The position numbers and the translations under genes were made by a program. The notes under the pieces were generated by a model. It saw only the letters and a program-made list of their open reading frames with translations. It ran no database searches and was not told the origin of the DNA. DNA of 54,188 nt from a virus (Duplodnaviria; Caudoviricetes). Of this stretch, positions 2,603 through 7,864 are shown piece after piece (the first letter of the stretch is position 1; every line of letters begins with the position of its first letter). The DNA lies in IMG/VR virus record IMGVR_UViG_3300032770_000026, positions 1-54,188 of that record. The stretch is one strand, 5' to 3'.

Positions 2603-2816
2603 GCAAGGTCAAAAACTCGAACAATTTATCCTAACGATGCCCTTAAACCAATATTTTAACACTAAAGGCGATGAAGAAACAATTCGCATAATCTGTGAAT
2701 GGATTGACCTCGACTGTATGTGGCCGTCCTATTACCTCGAATTCAACTTCGACAAGAGTAAATTTAAAAAGAAAGAATATAAAGTAAACGGAATTAAAGA
2801 ATTAAAAAGATGTTAA
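2568..2816 (+). CDS. Hypothetical protein
   Basis: ORF overlapping both neighbours; ATG at 2568 more likely than the TTG start at 2544. Confidence 0.5.
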   Translation: MNKEIQKICLSEQGQKLEQFILTMPLNQYFNTKGDEETIRIICEWIDLDCMWPSYYLEFNFDKSKFKKKEYKVNGIKELKRC

Positions 2817-3607
2817 TACACGATCATTTTCAGAATTTTAAAGTTTATCAAATTCCAAAAGCTCAATTGATAATAGCTGATATTCCTTATAATGTGGGTA
2901 TTAATGCTTATGCCTCAAATCCTTCCTGGTATAAAGACGGCGATAATAAAAACGGAGAAAGCGAATTGGCCGGGAAAGAATTTTTTGATACCGATAAGGA
3001 TTTTAGGCCGGCTGAATTTATGCACTTTTGCTCGACTATGTTAAAAAAAGAACCAAAAGAAAAAGGCCAAGCCCCCGCAATGCTAGTATTTTGCGAATAT
3101 GAACAACAATTCTATTTGATAGAACTAGCTAAAAAATACGGTTTACCCAATTACATAAATCTTGTTTTCCGCAAAAACTTTTCGGCTCAGGTTTTAAAAG
3201 CAAATATGAAAATTGTTGGCAATTGTGAATATGGCTTGGTTTTTTACCGTGATAAGCTTCCAAAATTCAATAATAACGGCAAAATGGTATTTAATTGTAT
3301 CGATGTGCCGCGCGACACAAAGAATGAAAAAATACATCCTACACAAAAATCCGTTGAATTACTTGAAAGGCTGATTGAAATATTTACCGATCCTGGCGAT
3401 GTTATAATCGATCCGGTTGCCGGTAGTGGATCAACATTAATTGCAGCCGAAAACAAAGGCCGTAAGGCTTACGGATTCGAAATTAAAATGAACTTCTTTA
3501 AGGCTGCTACAAATTGGATTGAGCAAAATCAACTTATAAAAAAGGAAATTAAAGAATTAGGATACGCAAAAACTGAATTAAATAAAACTCACTTAACTCT
3601 ATTTTAA
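2810..3607 (+). CDS. DNA adenine-N6/cytosine-N4 methyltransferase (beta class)
   Basis: DIPY catalytic motif (DPPY variant), HPTQK, DPVAGSGSTL SAM-binding motif. Confidence 0.9.
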   Translation: MLIHDHFQNFKVYQIPKAQLIIADIPYNVGINAYASNPSWYKDGDNKNGESELAGKEFFDTDKDFRPAEFMHFCSTMLKKEPKEKGQAPAMLVFCEYEQQFYLIELAKKYGLPNYINLVFRKNFSAQVLKANMKIVGNCEYGLVFYRDKLPKFNNNGKMVFNCIDVPRDTKNEKIHPTQKSVELLERLIEIFTDPGDVIIDPVAGSGSTLIAAENKGRKAYGFEIKMNFFKAATNWIEQNQLIKKEIKELGYAKTELNKTHLTLF

Positions 3608-3608
3608 A

Positions 3609-3896
3609 ATGAAAACCGAACAAATCAAATTAATCGTAACAGCCAATATCCAATATACGGATGGCAACCGTGGAAAAGCTATTGAACTGGCAAAGTATTG
3701 TACTAGAGCCTATACTCAATCTGGTATGGATTACGGGGCGAAAGTGGATAAAGTCGAGTTAATGAAAGACATAATTGATCTTGATTTATTAAATAAATAC
3801 TCTCTATTCCTAGAAAAACAAGGTTACATGGATACAGATTGGAGGGCCGAAGAACCTTTCGCAATTGACGAATTCATGAAAAGCTTGAAGAAATGA
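3609..3896 (+). CDS. Hypothetical protein
   Basis: ORF tightly coupled to the upstream gene. Confidence 0.55.
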   Translation: MKTEQIKLIVTANIQYTDGNRGKAIELAKYCTRAYTQSGMDYGAKVDKVELMKDIIDLDLLNKYSLFLEKQGYMDTDWRAEEPFAIDEFMKSLKK

Positions 3897-4047
3897 AACA
3901 TTACTGGACTGGAATAACAGCGACACCCTGGCATGTAACTTATTGTAAAAGATATACAGATAAAATAAGCCAATTAACTGAGAATATTGATGAAGTGACC
4001 TGTAAGGATTGCTTACGAAGGTTAAAAAGTTTGAAAGGAGAAAAGAA

Positions 4048-4425
4048 ATGACACTATTTGAAAAGAAACAAGAAATAATTTGCTTGAATCAAAGCAAAGA
4101 CGGATTAAGCACGAATGAATTAACGGAATTGCTTAATGAATATCGAATACTAGCAGTTGAACAATTTTTAATAACCCCTAAATTCTGGACTTTAATAGGT
4201 CGGTATATCCTCAGGATTTTAGGATTGCCATTTTTTAGCGCAATAGCCTTAATCTACTGTATTATTCAGTTTTTTGTATTTGTTATTAATTTCATTCGCT
4301 GGGGTGGTCAATCAATCGCATATACAAGGCATGTAAATTATAAGACTATTGCGGATGTCTATTTGAAGGTTGAAGAACTTGTAAATAAAAAGAAAACAAA
4401 TGAACCATATCTCCAAAACCAATAA
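4048..4425 (+). CDS. Hypothetical membrane protein
   Basis: Long hydrophobic stretch ILGLPFFSAIALIYCIIQFFVFVI; ATG at 4048 preferred. Confidence 0.55.
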   Translation: MTLFEKKQEIICLNQSKDGLSTNELTELLNEYRILAVEQFLITPKFWTLIGRYILRILGLPFFSAIALIYCIIQFFVFVINFIRWGGQSIAYTRHVNYKTIADVYLKVEELVNKKKTNEPYLQNQ

Positions 4426-4786
4426 AGTCCGTCTTTCTACCGGCGAAAAAATATCCCGGATGGAATTCAATAAAAGGATTCATGACGCGAAAGAATTGAA
4501 GTTATCACAGCAATTGAATGAGCATGGTTTAAATTTTTGCCAAGATTGTGCAAATGATAATGAATCTCTATTTAAACTCTTGATTGATGGACAAAAGTTT
4601 ATTAATGATTTAGAATATAGAATATTAGAGTGTTCTCATGAAATCTCAGTCAAAGAATGCGTTGAATCGGGTCGGGCGGAATTAGCCTATGATTTGAATA
4701 ACATGAGAATACGATGTCATTATCATCATAAAATAAAGGATGAGTTAAACTTAAAATTCAAACAATATGAAAACACTAGCGATTGA
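4400..4786 (+). CDS. NinG/HNH-like endonuclease
   Basis: CQDC ... CSHEIS ... NNMRIRCHYHH zinc/HNH-type pattern. Confidence 0.6.
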   Translation: MNHISKTNKVRLSTGEKISRMEFNKRIHDAKELKLSQQLNEHGLNFCQDCANDNESLFKLLIDGQKFINDLEYRILECSHEISVKECVESGRAELAYDLNNMRIRCHYHHKIKDELNLKFKQYENTSD

Positions 4787-4973
4787 TCCAGGTAATATTG
4801 AATCAGCTTTTGTAATTTGGGATGGAGAAATAATCTATTCGAAAGGAAAATTAAAGAATGAAGATTTATTAAGCACTAACCTTGCTACGAAGAAGGGCTA
4901 TTGCACACAACGTTTGATAATATGGAATGGCTGGGATTCGGAGCTACTAACTTATCCCACGCCACAAAACTAA
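4767..4973 (+). pseudogene. Truncated RuvC-like (RNase H fold) resolvase, interrupted by the cassette array
   Basis: MKTLAIDPGNIESAFV is a RuvC-like N-terminus; after about 35 aa the frame runs into the hairpin site. Confidence 0.6.
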
Positions 4974-5041
4974 TAGGTAGCAAGCTGGCTAAAAAGTCCG
5001 ATAACACCCAGCTATTTTATATTATGTGTTAGCGGTTGTTA
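4902..5041 (+). repeat. attC-like hairpin site 1
   Basis: ACAAC-GTTTG-ATAATATGGAATGGCTGGG (4917-4935) pairs with CCCAGCTATTTTATATTAT (5007-5025)-GT-GTTAGCG. Confidence 0.7.
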
Positions 5042-5045
5042 AATT

Positions 5046-5330
5046 ATGCAGTACAAAAAAGACGAAAATACAATTTGGGAAGATACTGGTAAAATTAAAG
5101 TACATAACTATCCAGCATCTTCAAGAAGTACATATTCATATATAACTCGAACTTATCGTGAAATAAAGAAGGATGCTTTTGGGTGGAAAGAAGTTGATGG
5201 AGAGCCAATTTATTTCCATGATATGACAACTGAACAGGTTACATTAGCGATGATTATGGGACAGGCTGAAAACGCATTAAATAATATTTGCAAGCGTGAG
5301 AAGTTTCTTGTTCCTATTAATAACCGCTAA
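5046..5330 (+). CDS. Hypothetical protein in cassette A
   Basis: ORF bounded by GTTAGCGGTTGTTA and TAATAACCGCTAAC; its stop codon lies inside CGCTAAC. Confidence 0.65.
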   Translation: MQYKKDENTIWEDTGKIKVHNYPASSRSTYSYITRTYREIKKDAFGWKEVDGEPIYFHDMTTEQVTLAMIMGQAENALNNICKREKFLVPINNR

Positions 5331-5691
5331 CGGTTGGCTGTATGATTAGTGCGCCAACCAAATTAGCAGAAATATTGATACGAGTTACAAACTTTAAAAT
5401 ACCGAGCGATGGAAAATTTTGATTATGAACAAATGGAAATGCCAACACCTTGCGAGCATTGCGGTGAGATATTTGACCTTAATGACGGGTATGGCTCTGA
5501 AAAATGGCACAAGAACGTTGTAATATGCGAAAAGTGTTATAGGGAAGAAGAAGCCGAAATAGAAGAAGATGAGCGCTGGGAGGAGATAAACATTGAAATT
5601 AGCAATGCTATCTACCACCTTAAAGAAGAGGGCGCGTGGGCAAAACTTACGGACGAGAACCGCGCATTAATTATACAGCATGTTAGCGGTT
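5322..5691 (+). repeat. attC-like hairpin site 2 with a ~307-nt coding loop
   Basis: AACCGCTAAC-GGTTG-GCTGTATGATTAGTGCGC (5337-5354) pairs with GCGCATTAATTATACAGC (5662-5679)-AT-GTTAGCGGTT. Confidence 0.75.
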
Positions 5692-5765
5692 CGTTGCCTG
5701 ATAAACACCCAGACACTGAAGCTGACGGCTATGTATTTTGCGGCAAATGTGGAAAGATGAAATAA
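5409..5765 (+). CDS. Zinc-finger hypothetical protein reading through the right arm of site 2
   Basis: CEHC, CEKC and terminal CGKC motifs; LIIQHVSGS is encoded by the hairpin arm. Confidence 0.65.
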   Translation: MENFDYEQMEMPTPCEHCGEIFDLNDGYGSEKWHKNVVICEKCYREEEAEIEEDERWEEINIEISNAIYHLKEEGAWAKLTDENRALIIQHVSGSLPDKHPDTEADGYVFCGKCGKMK

Positions 5766-5865
5766 GCTTTCGGCAATGACCGCTAACTCTTTTATATATA
5801 CACTTCAAAATTTTGCACTAAAATGGAAAGTCAAGAAAGAATCAAACTTTTAAAGTGAATGAATT

Positions 5866-6246
5866 ATGAGGAACGACAGGGAATACCAAATTTGTAAAGC
5901 AATTTCAACATATTTAAAATTTCAGTATCCAAATGTTATTTTTCATTTTGATTATGCTGGGCTACATTTAACCAAGGCTCAAGCCGGGAAAATGAAGGAA
6001 ATACAAGGTGGAAAGGGATGGCCGGATTTGTTTATTGCAGAGCCAAAGCATAATTATCATGGTTTGTTTTTGGAAATCAAAAAAGAAAATGAGCGACTTT
6101 ATAAAAAGATTAGCCGAATTCCAATAACCGAGCATATTCAATATCAAATTAATCAAATTATTACGCTTAACAAAAAAAATTATTGTGCTTGTTTTGCAAT
6201 TGGATTTGATGAGGCAAAAAAAATTATTGATGGATATTTAGGTTAA
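5866..6246 (+). CDS. VRR-NUC (PD-(D/E)XK) nuclease, probable Holliday junction resolvase
   Basis: GWPDLFI ... GLFLEIK motif, C-terminal GFDEA. Confidence 0.85.
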   Translation: MRNDREYQICKAISTYLKFQYPNVIFHFDYAGLHLTKAQAGKMKEIQGGKGWPDLFIAEPKHNYHGLFLEIKKENERLYKKISRIPITEHIQYQINQIITLNKKNYCACFAIGFDEAKKIIDGYLG

Positions 6247-6595
6247 TACCTAGCCTATTTTAACGTCAAATAATCAAATTTAAAAGAACAACCCCTTAAA
6301 CAAGGATAAGTATCAAAAACGAAAAATAATTGATTTAAACGCTTAAAAACGCAAAATATGAAATTTGAAGATTTGAAATTTTGTGAGGAGTTTGAAAAGA
6401 AATATAAATCGTTAGAACTTTTATTATTGATAAAAGACAATCTAACAGAGAAAGGACGAAAGGAATATTTTGAGTTAAAAACCTATATTCTCAACAATCT
6501 GGACAAATATATGGAATTAACCAACTAAGTCAAATAAAATCAACATAATGATATTAAATCATAACTAATTGATTAATAACTTAAGTCTAAAAAAT

Positions 6596-7102
6596 ATGGA
6601 TATACTAAACGAATCACAATCTATCATTGAATTTTTAAGAAAGAATTCAGATATTTTAAAAATCAATGGAATTGCTAAGCGTGCTGAAGTTCCTAGTTCA
6701 AGAATCTGGAACATGTTGTCGAATAGACAAATAAATCTATGTATAAAGGACGTAGCAAAACTTATTTCGGTATTATCTCCATTGGGGTATATCCCAGTTG
6801 ATGAAAAAAACGGGGGTATTAATAGAATCATCAAAAAGGTTTCCGAGATAACCAAGGTGCCGGTTTCAAAAATAACCAATTGCGCACAAGATCGTGAAGT
6901 CATAAGGGCCCGTGAATATATTGTTTTAGTAAATGAAAAAATTACTAAACTTAATTCTACGCTTTTAGGTAAAGAATTGGGTGGCAGGGATCACGCAACA
7001 ATATTATCGAACAAGAAAAGAGCAAACGGTTATCTCGAAGCAAAGGATAAATATTTTCTTGAATATTGGCCTGAAATAAAACGTCAACTACAAATAAATT
7101 AA
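6596..7102 (+). CDS. DNA-binding protein: N-terminal HTH plus DnaA domain IV-like C-terminus; candidate late regulator
   Basis: AREY ... LGKELGGRDHATIL is the DnaA C-terminal signature; last gene before the terminase. Confidence 0.7.
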   Translation: MDILNESQSIIEFLRKNSDILKINGIAKRAEVPSSRIWNMLSNRQINLCIKDVAKLISVLSPLGYIPVDEKNGGINRIIKKVSEITKVPVSKITNCAQDREVIRAREYIVLVNEKITKLNSTLLGKELGGRDHATILSNKKRANGYLEAKDKYFLEYWPEIKRQLQIN

Positions 7103-7163
7103 TGTATTATATTGACGAAATAGAAAAGAGAATTAAAGGATAAGAATTATTGATAATTAAGTA

Positions 7164-7193
7164 TTGAAATACCGAAATAAAAGAGTATATTTG
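7164..7193 (+). promoter_or_regulatory. Bacteroidota-type promoter upstream of the terminase genes
   Basis: TTG-N19-TATATTTG. Confidence 0.5.
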
Positions 7194-7384
7194 CAAAATA
7201 AAATAGTAAAATGAATTGTGAAAAACGTAAAACCGATAAAAGTTCATGCCTTCTTAAAGGGAGGGAAAAGAGTAATTAACAAAGACGATGCTAATTTCGT
7301 TAAATTAATGACTCAGGATGGATATTTGACTTTACGTAAGGACTTAGTAAAAGAATGGGATAAACTTCCACAAAACGCATAAGT

Positions 7385-7864
7385 ATGGCAAAGCACAAAT
7401 ATATTGAAACGCCTGAAAAAATGTGGGAATTATTCGAAGCTTATCGAAATGAGATAAAAGGTAATCCTATTGAGATCGTCGAACAAAAAAAGGGTACGTT
7501 AGTTATTCCGAAAAGTTTTGAAGGGAATATAAGTGAGCTTTTTCAATCAACAATAAATTTACCCCAGCAACGGCCTTTAACTATGGAAGGTTTTCTTAAT
7601 TACTTAGACGATAATGATATAATTTCAGATGCAACGGATTATTTTGAAAATAAAAACAATAGTTATGAAAAATATCTCCGTATCTGTAAACGCATAAAGA
7701 GAGTTATAAGGCAAGACCAAATAGAAGGTGGTATGGCTGGCATTTATAACCCTTCAATTACTCAGCGTTTAAACGGACTCACAGAAAAAACCGACATTAT
7801 GTCCGGTGGTCAACCTCTCCAAAGGACCATTATAAAGTGGGGTGATACAACATTAGAAGTATGA
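7385..7864 (+). CDS. terS: Terminase small subunit (P22 gp3-like)
   Basis: ETPEKMWE..Y, PLTMEGF, SITQRLNGL motifs; overlaps terL. Confidence 0.85.
   Translation: MAKHKYIETPEKMWELFEAYRNEIKGNPIEIVEQKKGTLVIPKSFEGNISELFQSTINLPQQRPLTMEGFLNYLDDNDIISDATDYFENKNNSYEKYLRICKRIKRVIRQDQIEGGMAGIYNPSITQRLNGLTEKTDIMSGGQPLQRTIIKWGDTTLEV

Follow-up and report, generated by a model that had tools for sequence, protein, structure and literature searches.

We analyzed a 54,188-nucleotide phage record from IMG/VR (IMGVR_UViG_3300032770_000026), the whole of which we call the window. Between an HNH-like endonuclease ORF and a VRR-NUC-type nuclease gene lie the remnant of a RuvC-like resolvase gene, two hairpin sites and two small ORFs (Table 1). 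An earlier note on this DNA had read the segment as a phage-borne array of integron-like gene cassettes; its observation is confirmed as real, and its interpretation overall is partly supported.

Table 1. Features of the array and its flanks (window positions).
Feature	Position	Strand	Description
HNH-like endonuclease ORF	4400-4786	+	Weak PHROG matches (phrog_144, phrog_5956); context gene
RuvC-like resolvase gene stump	4767-4847	+	27 codons; matches phrog_1770 positions 3-24 of 158 only
Module X	4848-4911	+	Conserved non-coding 3' end of upstream cassette; left core GCACACAAC (4903-4911) at its end
Site 1 (hairpin Y)	4903-5036	+	Left core 4903-4911, spacer 4912-4916, left arm 4917-4935, loop 4936-5006, right arm 5007-5025, spacer 5026-5027, right core 5028-5036
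Cassette unit 1	4912-5331	+	Hairpin Y, right core, ORF A, left core; predicted limits
ORF A	5046-5330	+	94 aa, no family; between 15-nt cassette termini
Unit 1 end	5317-5331	+	TTAATAACCGCTAAC; complement of 5028-5042
Site 2, interrupted	5323-5690	+	Left core 5323-5331, spacer 5332-5336, left arm 5337-5354, loop and ORF B body 5355-5661, right arm 5662-5679, spacer 5680-5681, right core 5682-5690
Cassette unit 2	5332-5787	+	Interrupted hairpin with ORF B, 106-nt body 5682-5787, left core 5779-5787; predicted limits
ORF B	5409-5765	+	118 aa, zinc-ribbon protein; starts in site 2 loop, runs through right arm and core
Array end	5788-5805	+	Backbone directly after last AAC, no hairpin; no partner arm
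VRR-NUC-type nuclease gene	5866-6246	+	Backbone/context; PF08774 weak, phrog_824 E 1e-13

Exact copies of the core GTTAGCGGT/ACCGCTAAC occur four times inside 4848-5798 and nowhere else in the 54,188-base record, in which length alone would predict about 0.4 copies by chance (a simple arithmetic estimate). Exact GTTAGCGGT lies at 5028 (+), 5323 (-), 5682 (+) and 5779 (-). Both sites share one architecture, comprising AAC, 5 nt, a stem of 18-19 bp, a loop, the second stem arm, 2 nt and GTTA. The stem arms are 84% complementary over 19 nt in site 1 and 89% complementary over 18 nt in site 2, and all five mismatches are G:T on the + strand. Cores also pair between successive sites: 5028-5036 is the reverse complement of 5323-5331, and 5682-5690 that of 5779-5787, at 9 of 9 positions in each case. 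At the termini of the first cassette, 5028-5042 and 5317-5331 are 93% complementary over 15 nt; those of the second (5682-5701/5770-5787) pair over 9 bp, a 1-nt bulge and a further 7 bp. The shared hairpin architecture with its asymmetric spacers and the inverted repeat around the first cassette had both been claimed in the earlier note and hold, as does the inverted repeat around the second, although the latter is less perfect than originally written.

ORF A ends within the left core that follows it, its stop codon (5328-5330) falling in CGCTAAC as first noted, and in locus G001 the same 15-nt termini enclose an unrelated 87-aa ORF. Site 2 is canonical in its parts, but its loop is interrupted by about 250 nt of ORF B, which matches phrog_14808 and, below the cut-off, Lar_restr_allev (E 4.6e-4), and has homologues in loci L040 (75%) and L041 (64%). 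A third AAC arm at 5779-5787 is followed by TCTTT TATATATAC; the claim that it is partnerless is borne out, with no partner arm within 1.7 kb. Arrays in the cultured phages P12002L and P12002S end in the same way, and a contig from sequencing run X4 has 5784-5893 in common with the window, preceded by a different cassette end.

On its left, the array ends in a rearranged stump. The RuvC-like stump continues into module X to form a chimeric ORF (4767-4973), and the record holds no further pieces of the gene. The 64 nt of module X recur in L030, L032-L035, L039 and two MAG contigs; in L030, L033 and G002 the cassette of this type begins with GTTGTGTGC, which is absent from the window, so that the 5' partner core is missing here. 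We rejected a split or intron-containing RuvC gene at this end, as the phrog_1770 match covers 22 residues only and an Rfam search of the window matched no family. A frame-2 peptide across 4901-5032 was likewise discarded as part of RuvC: it is translated hairpin Y, and recurs inside an unrelated ORF of L107. Copies of hairpin Y, 88-96% identical and with different flanks, occur in L031, L036, L037 and L038, and another lies within the recombinase-linked array of L107. In related wetland contigs (runs X1 and X4) the HNH-like ORF is itself cassette-like, with similarity ending at 4761 and followed by a canonical core and left arm. A blastn search of 3500-7500 against 50,697 phage records gave no match, and viral contigs yielded no relatives of the HNH-like ORF or ORF A. 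Synteny through the VRR-NUC gene was set aside, since its closest relative (L006) has different upstream genes and no cores.

Overall, the window sites look worn: the own cores of site 1 pair over 3 bp only, site 2 is split by 307 nt, and the left end holds a gene stump and an orphan cassette end. Folded as DNA, site 1 reaches -15.6 kcal/mol (z = -1.55), a stability equaled in 15 of 200 shuffles and thus within the shuffle range; what argues for significance is the recurrence of the cores together with the comparative evidence. A strict scan for the family pattern (TAAC...GTTA, span at most 200 nt, at least 12 pairs) returns no site in the window, because site 1 has CAAC (the end of module X) and site 2 spans 364 nt owing to ORF B.

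A hairpin-site family in Bacteroidota and their phages

We compared the window with two covariance models of the site. The first, R1, includes window site 1 in its training set and scores it at 116 bits; the second, R2, was built from 13 bacterial sites only and finds site 1 as its sole significant match in the window (62.7 bits, E 2e-13). Site 2 matches both models weakly, through its left arm and loop (16.1 bits, E 0.27 for R1; 16.3 bits, E 0.09 for R2). With R1 we found 54 sites in array-bearing viral and MAG loci and none in the 14 VRR-NUC-related loci scanned (of 24 related loci). Sites at E <= 1e-5 are present in 69 of 151 sampled Bacteroidota genomes. Arrays of the same element occur in unrelated viral contigs and in the Polaribacter phages P12002L and P12002S; by blastp, four array-bearing phages have almost no proteins in common, and on this ground we rejected an enzyme encoded by all of them.

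Read along the strand that folds best, a family site opens with the left core G-NNNN-TAAC and closes with the right core GTTA-NNNN-C. Between them, the two arms of an 18-19 bp stem enclose a loop of 30-150 nt in which some motifs are conserved; a spacer of 4-5 nt separates the left core from the first arm, and one of 1-2 nt the second arm from the right core. The stem carries fixed G:T wobbles at positions 8 and 13, and both window stems have these wobbles together with spacers of 5 and 2 nt. Compensatory changes are seen at 17 of 23 pairs in an alignment of 20 viral sites, and the two wobble positions hold G:U in 15 and 17 of the 20. The 13 bacterial sites behave similarly: pairing extends to 96% of alignment cells, a figure that falls to 72% on shuffling and to no more than 52% on sliding, compensatory changes affect 16 of 23 pairs, and the wobble positions hold G:U in 7/12 and 12/12. 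This family of hairpin DNA sites appears specific to Bacteroidota and their phages, and is widespread among them.

Cassette termini and probable exchange at the cores

Each cassette begins with the reverse complement of the sequence in which it ends, including a variable 4-nt "barcode". Perfect barcode complements join 26 of 46 consecutive site pairs (random mean 1.6, maximum 8), compared to only 2 of 61 cases inside a single site. The rule extends to all 20 pairs of one Flavobacterium array and to 166 of 234 pairs in recombinase-linked viral arrays, bearing out the integron-like cassette logic first proposed for this locus. Inverted repeats that flank each segment, with hairpins in subterminal position, could also mark miniature transposable elements or IS200/IS605-type hairpin elements. 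We rejected this reading as scarcely credible: the repeats vary between elements yet stay complementary, as expected of pairing rather than of a site bound by a transposase, five records contain neither a Y1 transposase nor a serine recombinase, and no target duplications are visible around the window segments.

Comparison between phages places the limits of shared sequence at the cores. Similarity ends within 12 nt of a core in 110 of 338 cases, compared to 3.3% for random positions, and these ends divide into 93 at the left core (AAC side) and 17 at the right core (GTT side). In the wetland contigs, similarity to the window breaks at 4909-4915, 5031-5041 and 5784. Of the two cultured phages, P12002S carries an extra 1,080 bp (three units) that is missing from its sister P12002L, with the remainder 99.6-100% identical, and the junction of this indel lies within 11 nt after a left core, which is as finely as it can be placed. 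Lytic phages thus differ by whole units at these junctions. The earlier note had anticipated variation at the cores in related phages, and this is what we see, though more often on the AAC side than at GTT, where it had looked for cassette gain or loss.

Because breakpoints cluster on the AAC/spacer side, the hairpin appears to travel with the gene downstream of it. We set the unit limits in Table 1 on the basis of this bias and of the P12002L/P12002S indel, which moves the cassettes from 5028-5331 and 5682-5787, as first delimited, to 4912-5331 and 5332-5787. These comparisons of sequence suggest site-specific recombination of the sites. At the same time, the 17 right-core ends and the 11-nt uncertainty of the junction mean that homologous recombination between similar arms could give rise to part of the pattern. 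Contigs from four sequencing runs contain no joint that removes a unit, in assemblies of a kind that drops rare circles and deletions.

Linked recombinase, gene polarity and cargo

A XerA/IntI-like tyrosine recombinase without the IntI insertion adjoins arrays in bacteria and in many viral contigs; in G019, for example, a 346-aa enzyme lies at the array end. Homologues are present in 43 of the 151 Bacteroidota genomes, and sites in 32 of those 43 compared to 37 of the 108 others; with a close homologue defined at E <= 1e-60, 37 genomes have sites but none at that cut-off. Among viral loci with a homologue, 62 of 80 have sites; the strand that encodes the recombinase carries 299 of these sites and the opposite strand 6, with 296 upstream of the recombinase and 3 downstream. 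This linkage is a correlation among related genomes. The two things that the earlier note proposed to seek with a covariance model, further arrays and a linked tyrosine recombinase, were both found in Bacteroidota and phages. Five recombinase-bearing viral records, which are 17-46% fragments, gave no Terminase_6N match, so that their viral status rests on the classification of the collection and on the gene context of L107.

The window itself has no match to a tyrosine recombinase, a serine recombinase or a Y1 transposase in a record that is 88% complete, in line with the first description of the array as integrase-less. Similarly, six array-bearing phage genomes, four of them complete and including P12002L and P12002S, contain no tyrosine recombinase and nonetheless show whole-unit differences. 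The hairpins might therefore be mere hotspots for homologous or illegitimate recombination between similar repeats, with no dedicated recombinase acting in phages, much as in the promoter/stem-loop cassettes of T4-type phages. The breakpoints at the right core or inside an arm fit this idea, as do the recombination nucleases that are encoded (VRR-NUC and HNH in the window, NinG/Rap in P12002L). Hotspots alone, however, leave unexplained why cassette ends covary in perfect complementarity across a variable barcode, why phage and bacterial sites alike retain the fixed G:T wobbles and the unequal spacers, and why arrays elsewhere are linked so tightly, and in a set orientation, to a single recombinase family; we judge this account unlikely.

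Gene polarity differs between the two hosts of the family. In viral arrays, the better-folding strand, counting G:U pairs, is the coding strand in 40 of 43 intervals, whereas bacterial sites are antisense to genes in 40/45 and 20/22. Together with the five window stem mismatches, which all read as G:U in the mRNA sense, and with ORFs that begin in or just after sites, the viral arrangement would suit intercistronic hairpins for processing, stability or termination of an early transcript, with the DNA pattern as a by-product. Such a primary role at the RNA level is very improbable, given the antisense bacterial sites, the lack of an Rfam match, the absence of a T-run 3' of the window stems on inspection, and its failure to account for core breakpoints and for cassette ends that pair across 100-1500 nt. 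A secondary RNA role in phages may exist; no RNA sequencing run is among those listed with this DNA.

We consider it likely that 4848-5798 is a short, recombinase-less array of two cassette units whose boundaries are folded single-strand DNA sites belonging to an integron-like system. The cognate enzyme would be the XerA/IntI-like recombinase that lacks the IntI-specific insertion, and strand exchange would occur at the junction of left core and spacer. A unit of hairpin, right core, gene and left core would leave as a circle, in which its own two cores would pair perfectly, and could re-enter at any other site. With the enzyme absent here, it would have to be supplied in trans by the host or a co-infecting phage if the array is presently active; otherwise the array would be a relic. 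The phage looks like a recombinase-less outpost of a gene-shuffling system common to Bacteroidota and many of their phages. If this mechanism holds, it would offer a route for accessory, probably counter-defence, genes among unrelated Bacteroidota phages, and such genes could be found by their flanks.

Viral cargo is rich in DNA methyltransferases, with family sites around the methyltransferase genes of P12002L, whereas bacterial arrays, which are phylum-wide here, carry defence-type domains of restriction and abortive-infection types. In the literature searched, we found no description of this contrast in cargo or of the reversed polarity. A broader idea, which we offer tentatively and would not bet on, is that Bacteroidota and their phages maintain two mirror-image cassette economies on one folded-site family, in which reversed polarity would silence captured genes and recombinase-less phages would borrow the enzyme to swap counter-defence genes. 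Seen in this way, bacteria would hold long arrays behind a recombinase, and phages arrays with or without a recombinase of their own placed after the array. Viral cargo in this scheme would include other DNA-modification genes besides methyltransferases.

Comparison with known systems

Bacteria are known to gather small adaptive genes and rearrange them by means of integrons, the textbook example of such a device. Two other systems, the PeSL promoter/stem-loop cassettes of T4-type phages and the pdif/Xer modules of Acinetobacter plasmids, also place small accessory genes between repeated sites and shuffle them as modules. To our knowledge, neither has complementary cassette termini or a covarying barcode, and their sites and enzymes are different. 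In integron attC sites the stem has extrahelical bases, and the unpaired spacer at its center is roughly symmetric. Neither holds for the sites described here: their stem runs over 18-19 bp without a break or bulged bases and has two fixed G:T wobbles, and it is flanked by spacers of 4-5 and 1-2 nt (5 and 2 nt in the window). They further differ from attC sites in a paired core of at least 9 bp with a 4-nt barcode, in conserved loop motifs, in a partner enzyme without the IntI insertion and, in phages, in genes that lie downstream of the site on the folding strand.

There are also points of likeness to attC sites and CALINs. Both families have inverse AAC...GTT cores around an imperfect hairpin, small promoter-less ORFs with a stop codon often in the left core, cassette starts complementary to cassette ends, and methyltransferase cargo, and integrase-less arrays in lytic phages are known for attC as well from passages of PMC9892861. 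Those passages (Qi et al. 2023) put attC clusters in a few phages already in print, among them a CALIN of P12002L that holds two methyltransferase genes, and report that, of two P12002L sites tested, one recombines with attI1 through the action of IntI1. P12002L also carries sites of the present family, a correspondence at the level of the phage.

The window array could accordingly consist of ordinary attC sites served by classical integron integrases. Taking TIGR02249 at 265 bits or more, and with it the IntI insertion, as the mark of an integron integrase, we found true integrases in 50 of the 151 Bacteroidota genomes; family sites do not track with them, being present in 25 of these 50 and in 44 of the 101 others. 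All three IntI loci on contigs of 2.2-5.3 Mb lack a family site within 10 kb even with filters off, and one of the three has a different, classical-looking attC array that scores 17.9 bits with R1. The enzymes linked to family arrays score 203 and 151 bits against TIGR02249, each in two stretches and below both integron-integrase cut-offs, and the window has no TIGR02249 integrase beside its array. Classical Bacteroidota integrons (TIGR02249 with attC, as in L086) share with this family the phylum, the overall idea and TAAC/GTTA-type cores, but are a separate site family and enzyme clade whose co-occurrence with it is not beyond chance. We regard service by classical integrases as quite improbable, and the suggestion that the 5/2 spacers mark a family distinct from classical attC stands, since these sites are separate from the attC arrays that adjoin true IntI genes in the same phylum. 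In a preprint passage, Bacteroidota are counted among clades "previously found without any integrons".

The closest bacterial counterparts are the recombinase-associated immunity arrays (rAID) of Bacteroidales, which passages of Ross et al. 2019 (10.1101/471110) and PMC12247911 describe as having integron-like repeats. In a rAID array, an XerD-like tyrosine recombinase on the 5' side is followed by co-directional short genes. Bacterial arrays that carry the present sites have this architecture, and we liken the two on that ground, the published motif being shown only as a figure. The window differs in being from a phage, in having no recombinase and in its opposite gene polarity. Moreover, the passages describe rAID for Bacteroidales and immunity genes, while the present family is phylum-wide, with one array in Flavobacterium. 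Neither source links arrays to phages in these passages: "phage" occurs in 10.1101/471110 only in a general remark on phage defence, and the word is absent from the corresponding text of PMC12247911, where the rAID mechanism is still called open in 2025. We found no description of the site structure or of phage-borne recombinase-linked arrays in the literature searched. The locus ties rAID-type arrays to phage attC clusters and gives the sites an anatomy open to testing, with the 4-nt barcode, the fixed wobbles, a junction at which cleavage is likely and a candidate for the enzyme; should the proposed mechanism hold, the biogenesis of rAID arrays would become directly testable.

The cassette array of the window

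The window carries a recombinase-less array of integron-like cassettes, whose sites form a family distinct from classical attC. Each site runs from a left core ending in AAC through a spacer, a stem, a loop, the second stem arm and a spacer to a right core starting with GTT. The finding is real, and the earlier note, which had proposed an integron-like cassette array without an integrase, was largely right: the array, its lack of a recombinase and the separate site family all stand, and for the mechanism we infer from anatomy, covariation, breakpoints and linkage that a single DNA strand would fold at the site, that a tyrosine recombinase would act on the folded strand, and that strand exchange would occur at the AAC junction.

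The window spans the entire record, a 54,188-base viral contig of 88% rated completeness, and holds a series of small genes between 2800 and 7400, all on the + strand. The array features fall between the HNH-like ORF and the VRR-NUC gene. The methyltransferase gene, 1.3 kb upstream of the array, has no flanking sites in the window; in other phages such genes are cassette-borne.

Features of the array region in the window
Feature	Position	Strand	Remark
DNA methyltransferase (N6/N4)	2810-3607	+	family search of window ORFs
HNH-like ORF	4400-4786	+	family search of window ORFs
Chimeric ORF	4767-4973		RuvC-like resolvase N-terminus (27 codons) continuing into module X and hairpin Y
Module X	4848-4911		3' end of an upstream cassette
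Stem 1	4917-4935/5007-5025	+	
ORF A	5046-5330	+	enclosed by complementary 15-nt termini
Stem 2	5337-5354/5662-5679	+	
ORF B	5409-5765	+	starts inside the second "loop", runs out via right arm and core
VRR-NUC nuclease	5866-6246	+	family search of window ORFs

The repeated cores, two stems, 5/2-nt spacers and cassette termini seen in the sequence at the outset are all present. The record has four exact copies of GTTAGCGGT in all, at 5028, 5323, 5682 and 5779, whose orientation alternates. Both stems have AAC plus 5 nt on the 5' side and 2 nt plus GTTA on the 3' side. The stems contain five mismatches, each of them G:T on the + strand. Both cassettes satisfy the rule that their termini are complementary, with an identical barcode (the four variable bases of a core). 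Site 1 has a folding energy of z = -1.55, and folding energy by itself would not have flagged it.

The array looks worn. Of its upstream cassette only the last 64 nt are left, in fusion with 27 codons from a RuvC-like gene; the 5' core of this cassette is absent from the window, and no further RuvC-like pieces occur elsewhere in the record. The two cores of site 1 pair with each other across 3 bp. In site 2 the arms are genuine and carry wobbles at positions 8 and 13, and the loop is similar to the family loop as far as 5408, after which about 250 nt of ORF B precede the right arm. At 5787/5788 the array ends with AAC followed by backbone without a hairpin. ORFs in loops also occur outside the window: one site loop of the cultured Polaribacter phage P12002L (L042, 39518-39707; compare window 5355-5661) contains a small annotated gene. 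A homologue of ORF B in contig L040 retains the right arm and core and is missing the left arm; another, in L041, has neither left arm nor right arm and core.

A site family of phages and Bacteroidota

Short, highly identical matches to the chimeric ORF led to ten unrelated viral contigs, in which two DNA modules recur: module X, the 64 nt ahead of the first AAC, and hairpin Y, which is site 1. Module X is kept in at least seven viral contigs and in two contigs from MAGs, one labelled Bacteroidetes and the other Bacteroidales, and contains an internal GCACTAAC; in the window and in L030, L032-L035, L039, L051 and L052 it is a non-coding 64-nt cassette end behind differing ORFs. Hairpin Y is 88-96% identical in four contigs, with cores differing on both sides. 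A structural scan showed that these viral contigs hold arrays built in the same way, nearly all on a single strand, including 13 sites in a complete 64.6-kb phage (G001) versus 0-2 in ten shuffles.

For 20 aligned sites the fold is a 4-bp TAAC/GTTA helix and a 19-bp stem, with compensatory changes in 17 of 23 pairs and two conserved G:U positions. The resulting covariance model R1, trained with window site 1 included, identified 54 sites in array-bearing loci, none in 14 scanned loci related via the VRR-NUC gene, and, with filters off, no more than site 1 and, weakly, the left half of site 2 in the window. Because site 1 had been in this training set, we built a second model, R2, from 13 bacterial sites only; its sole significant match in the window is site 1, at 62.7 bits. 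Further sites, whose absence would have counted against the earlier note, exist both in viral array-bearing loci and in bacteria: among 151 genomes drawn evenly from the Bacteroidota phylum, 69 contain R1 matches, often in clusters of one orientation.

Including flanks, site lengths fall into classes of about 100, 137 and 205-215 nt. Two alignments (A4 and A5) show a loop of ~70 nt with conserved motifs of ATTTCGAAGCAC.AAAC and CCACTG types common to viral and bacterial sites, and no conserved inner helix was predicted in the loop from either. Viral and bacterial site sequences separate in part: the closest site in another genome is viral for 35 of 49 viral sites and bacterial for 64 of 74 bacterial ones. 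A lone family site (L062:12470-12611, contig C46 of the Bacteroidales MAG G007) lies in ordinary chromosomal surroundings beside a type IIG restriction-modification gene, far from arrays. G007 has 31 sites over many short contigs with viral-type gene polarity, several of which begin or finish in a site; these contigs are probably phage sequence that was binned with the MAG and assembled in pieces because of the repeats.

Cassette ends and exchange points

The right-core barcode exactly complements the left-core barcode of the next site in 26 of 46 consecutive site pairs (random pairing: mean 1.6, maximum 8), while the two cores within one site are complementary in only 2 of 61. On a Flavobacterium chromosome, 20/20 consecutive pairs match across all nine core bases. 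The core sequence is therefore free to vary while the two ends of a cassette stay complementary, as expected if cassettes are excised as circles and inserted again at a folded site. Identical 15-nt termini (window 5028-5042/5317-5331 and L043:1943-2206) enclose two unrelated ORFs in two phages (BLASTP E 4.7), and it looks as if cargo can be exchanged while the ends around it are conserved.

Between different viral contigs, 110 of 338 similarity ends lie within 12 nt of a core, compared with 3.3% for random positions inside arrays. Related phages vary with breakpoints at the cores, as had been proposed, but mostly at the left-core (AAC) junction with the spacer (93 ends) and seldom at the right core, GTT (17). 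Where contigs of other wetland runs overlap the window, the similarity stops at 4761 (a canonical site comes next), 4909-4915, 5031-5041 and 5784. The clearest case of exchange at cores is the pair of Polaribacter phages, 99.6-100% identical around their arrays: P12002S carries 1,080 bp (three units) missing from P12002L, with the junction at most 11 nt past a left core, and another block has been exchanged. Downstream, this block stops exactly at an AAC, beyond which the shared backbone begins with no hairpin, an array end like that of the window. These differences and the breakpoint positions point to a mobile unit that most likely comprises hairpin, right core, gene and left core (window 4912-5331 and 5332-5787).

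Recombinases, gene polarity and known systems

The PF00589 profile has no match in the window, in five other array-bearing viral records (two complete) or in either Polaribacter phage, and no serine recombinase or Y1 transposase was matched in five records including the window. Four array-bearing phages have almost no proteins in common. Linked tyrosine recombinases, absent from the window, do lie beside arrays in bacterial genomes and viral contigs, in line with the earlier note. In a Flavobacterium, a cluster with 24 or more sites over 20 kb terminates at a tyrosine recombinase of 346 aa (PF13495 and PF00589 domains), whose best NCBIfam matches are a XerA/integron-integrase model (216 bits; cut-off 220) and the integron-integrase model TIGR02249 (203 bits; cut-off 265); as the latter match is split in two, the enzyme lacks the IntI insertion. 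At E <= 1e-60, 43 of the 151 genomes have a homologue, and sites occur in 32/43 genomes with and 37/108 without one (odds ratio 5.6, genomes not being independent), and in many genomes the gene is within a few kb of an array.

Among 80 viral loci with a recombinase homologue at 39-48% identity, the structural scanner called sites in 62: 299 on the recombinase strand and 6 on the opposite one, 296 upstream and 3 downstream, the last site lying 69-800 nt ahead of the gene in the 50 loci listed. The terminus rule is satisfied by 166 of 234 pairs. On one strand, the viral contig L107 carries a primase gene, an array that opens with hairpin Y and holds HNH, Dam-type methylase and small ORFs, and genes for a recombinase of 270 aa and a DnaB-like helicase. 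Some phage-borne systems are therefore complete; among these recombinase-linked arrays, that of the window is an orphan.

The longest inter-site ORF lies on the G:T-wobble strand in 40/43 intervals of viral or virus-like arrays, and on the opposite strand in 40/45 bacterial intervals and 20/22 flanks in eleven further genomes. Folded as DNA, the wobble strand gives the better structure at 5 of 6 sites. The recombinase occupies the same array end relative to the sites in viral and bacterial arrays; the inversion concerns the genes. Viral cassette ORFs include DNA methyltransferases (10/40) and matches to PAPS-reductase, radical-SAM and, weakly, Lar-like families. Matches among 40 bacterial ones include MvaI/BcnI and MutH-type nucleases, Eco57I, Shedu SduA_C, AIPR, SLATT, YLATT, AAA_15, AAA_21, Gp49 and a beta-lactamase-fold protein. 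Our literature search found no published description of the polarity reversal, the cargo contrast or the viral/bacterial separation of site sequences.

The sites are separate from those of classical integrons, as the earlier note had suggested. Of the 151 genomes, 50 carry TIGR02249 integrases above cut-off (290-500 bits). These integrases do not track the sites, which are found in 25/50 genomes with and 44/101 without one; many of the integrase genes lie 250-300 nt from a contig end. Around three TIGR02249 genes on long contigs (2.2-5.3 Mb), R1 with filters off detected no sites within 10 kb; one of them (L086:250-9600) adjoins a different, classical-looking attC array, where R1 reaches 17.9 bits. 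A fourth, 3.8 kb from four sites, is ambiguous. The recombinase-associated arrays of Bacteroidales (rAID), whose biogenesis a 2025 preprint (PMC12247911) still calls open, have the layout of our bacterial recombinase-linked arrays: as described by Ross et al. (2019, 10.1101/471110), rAID-1 has a 5' XerD-like recombinase, short co-directional genes and integron-like intergenic repeats.
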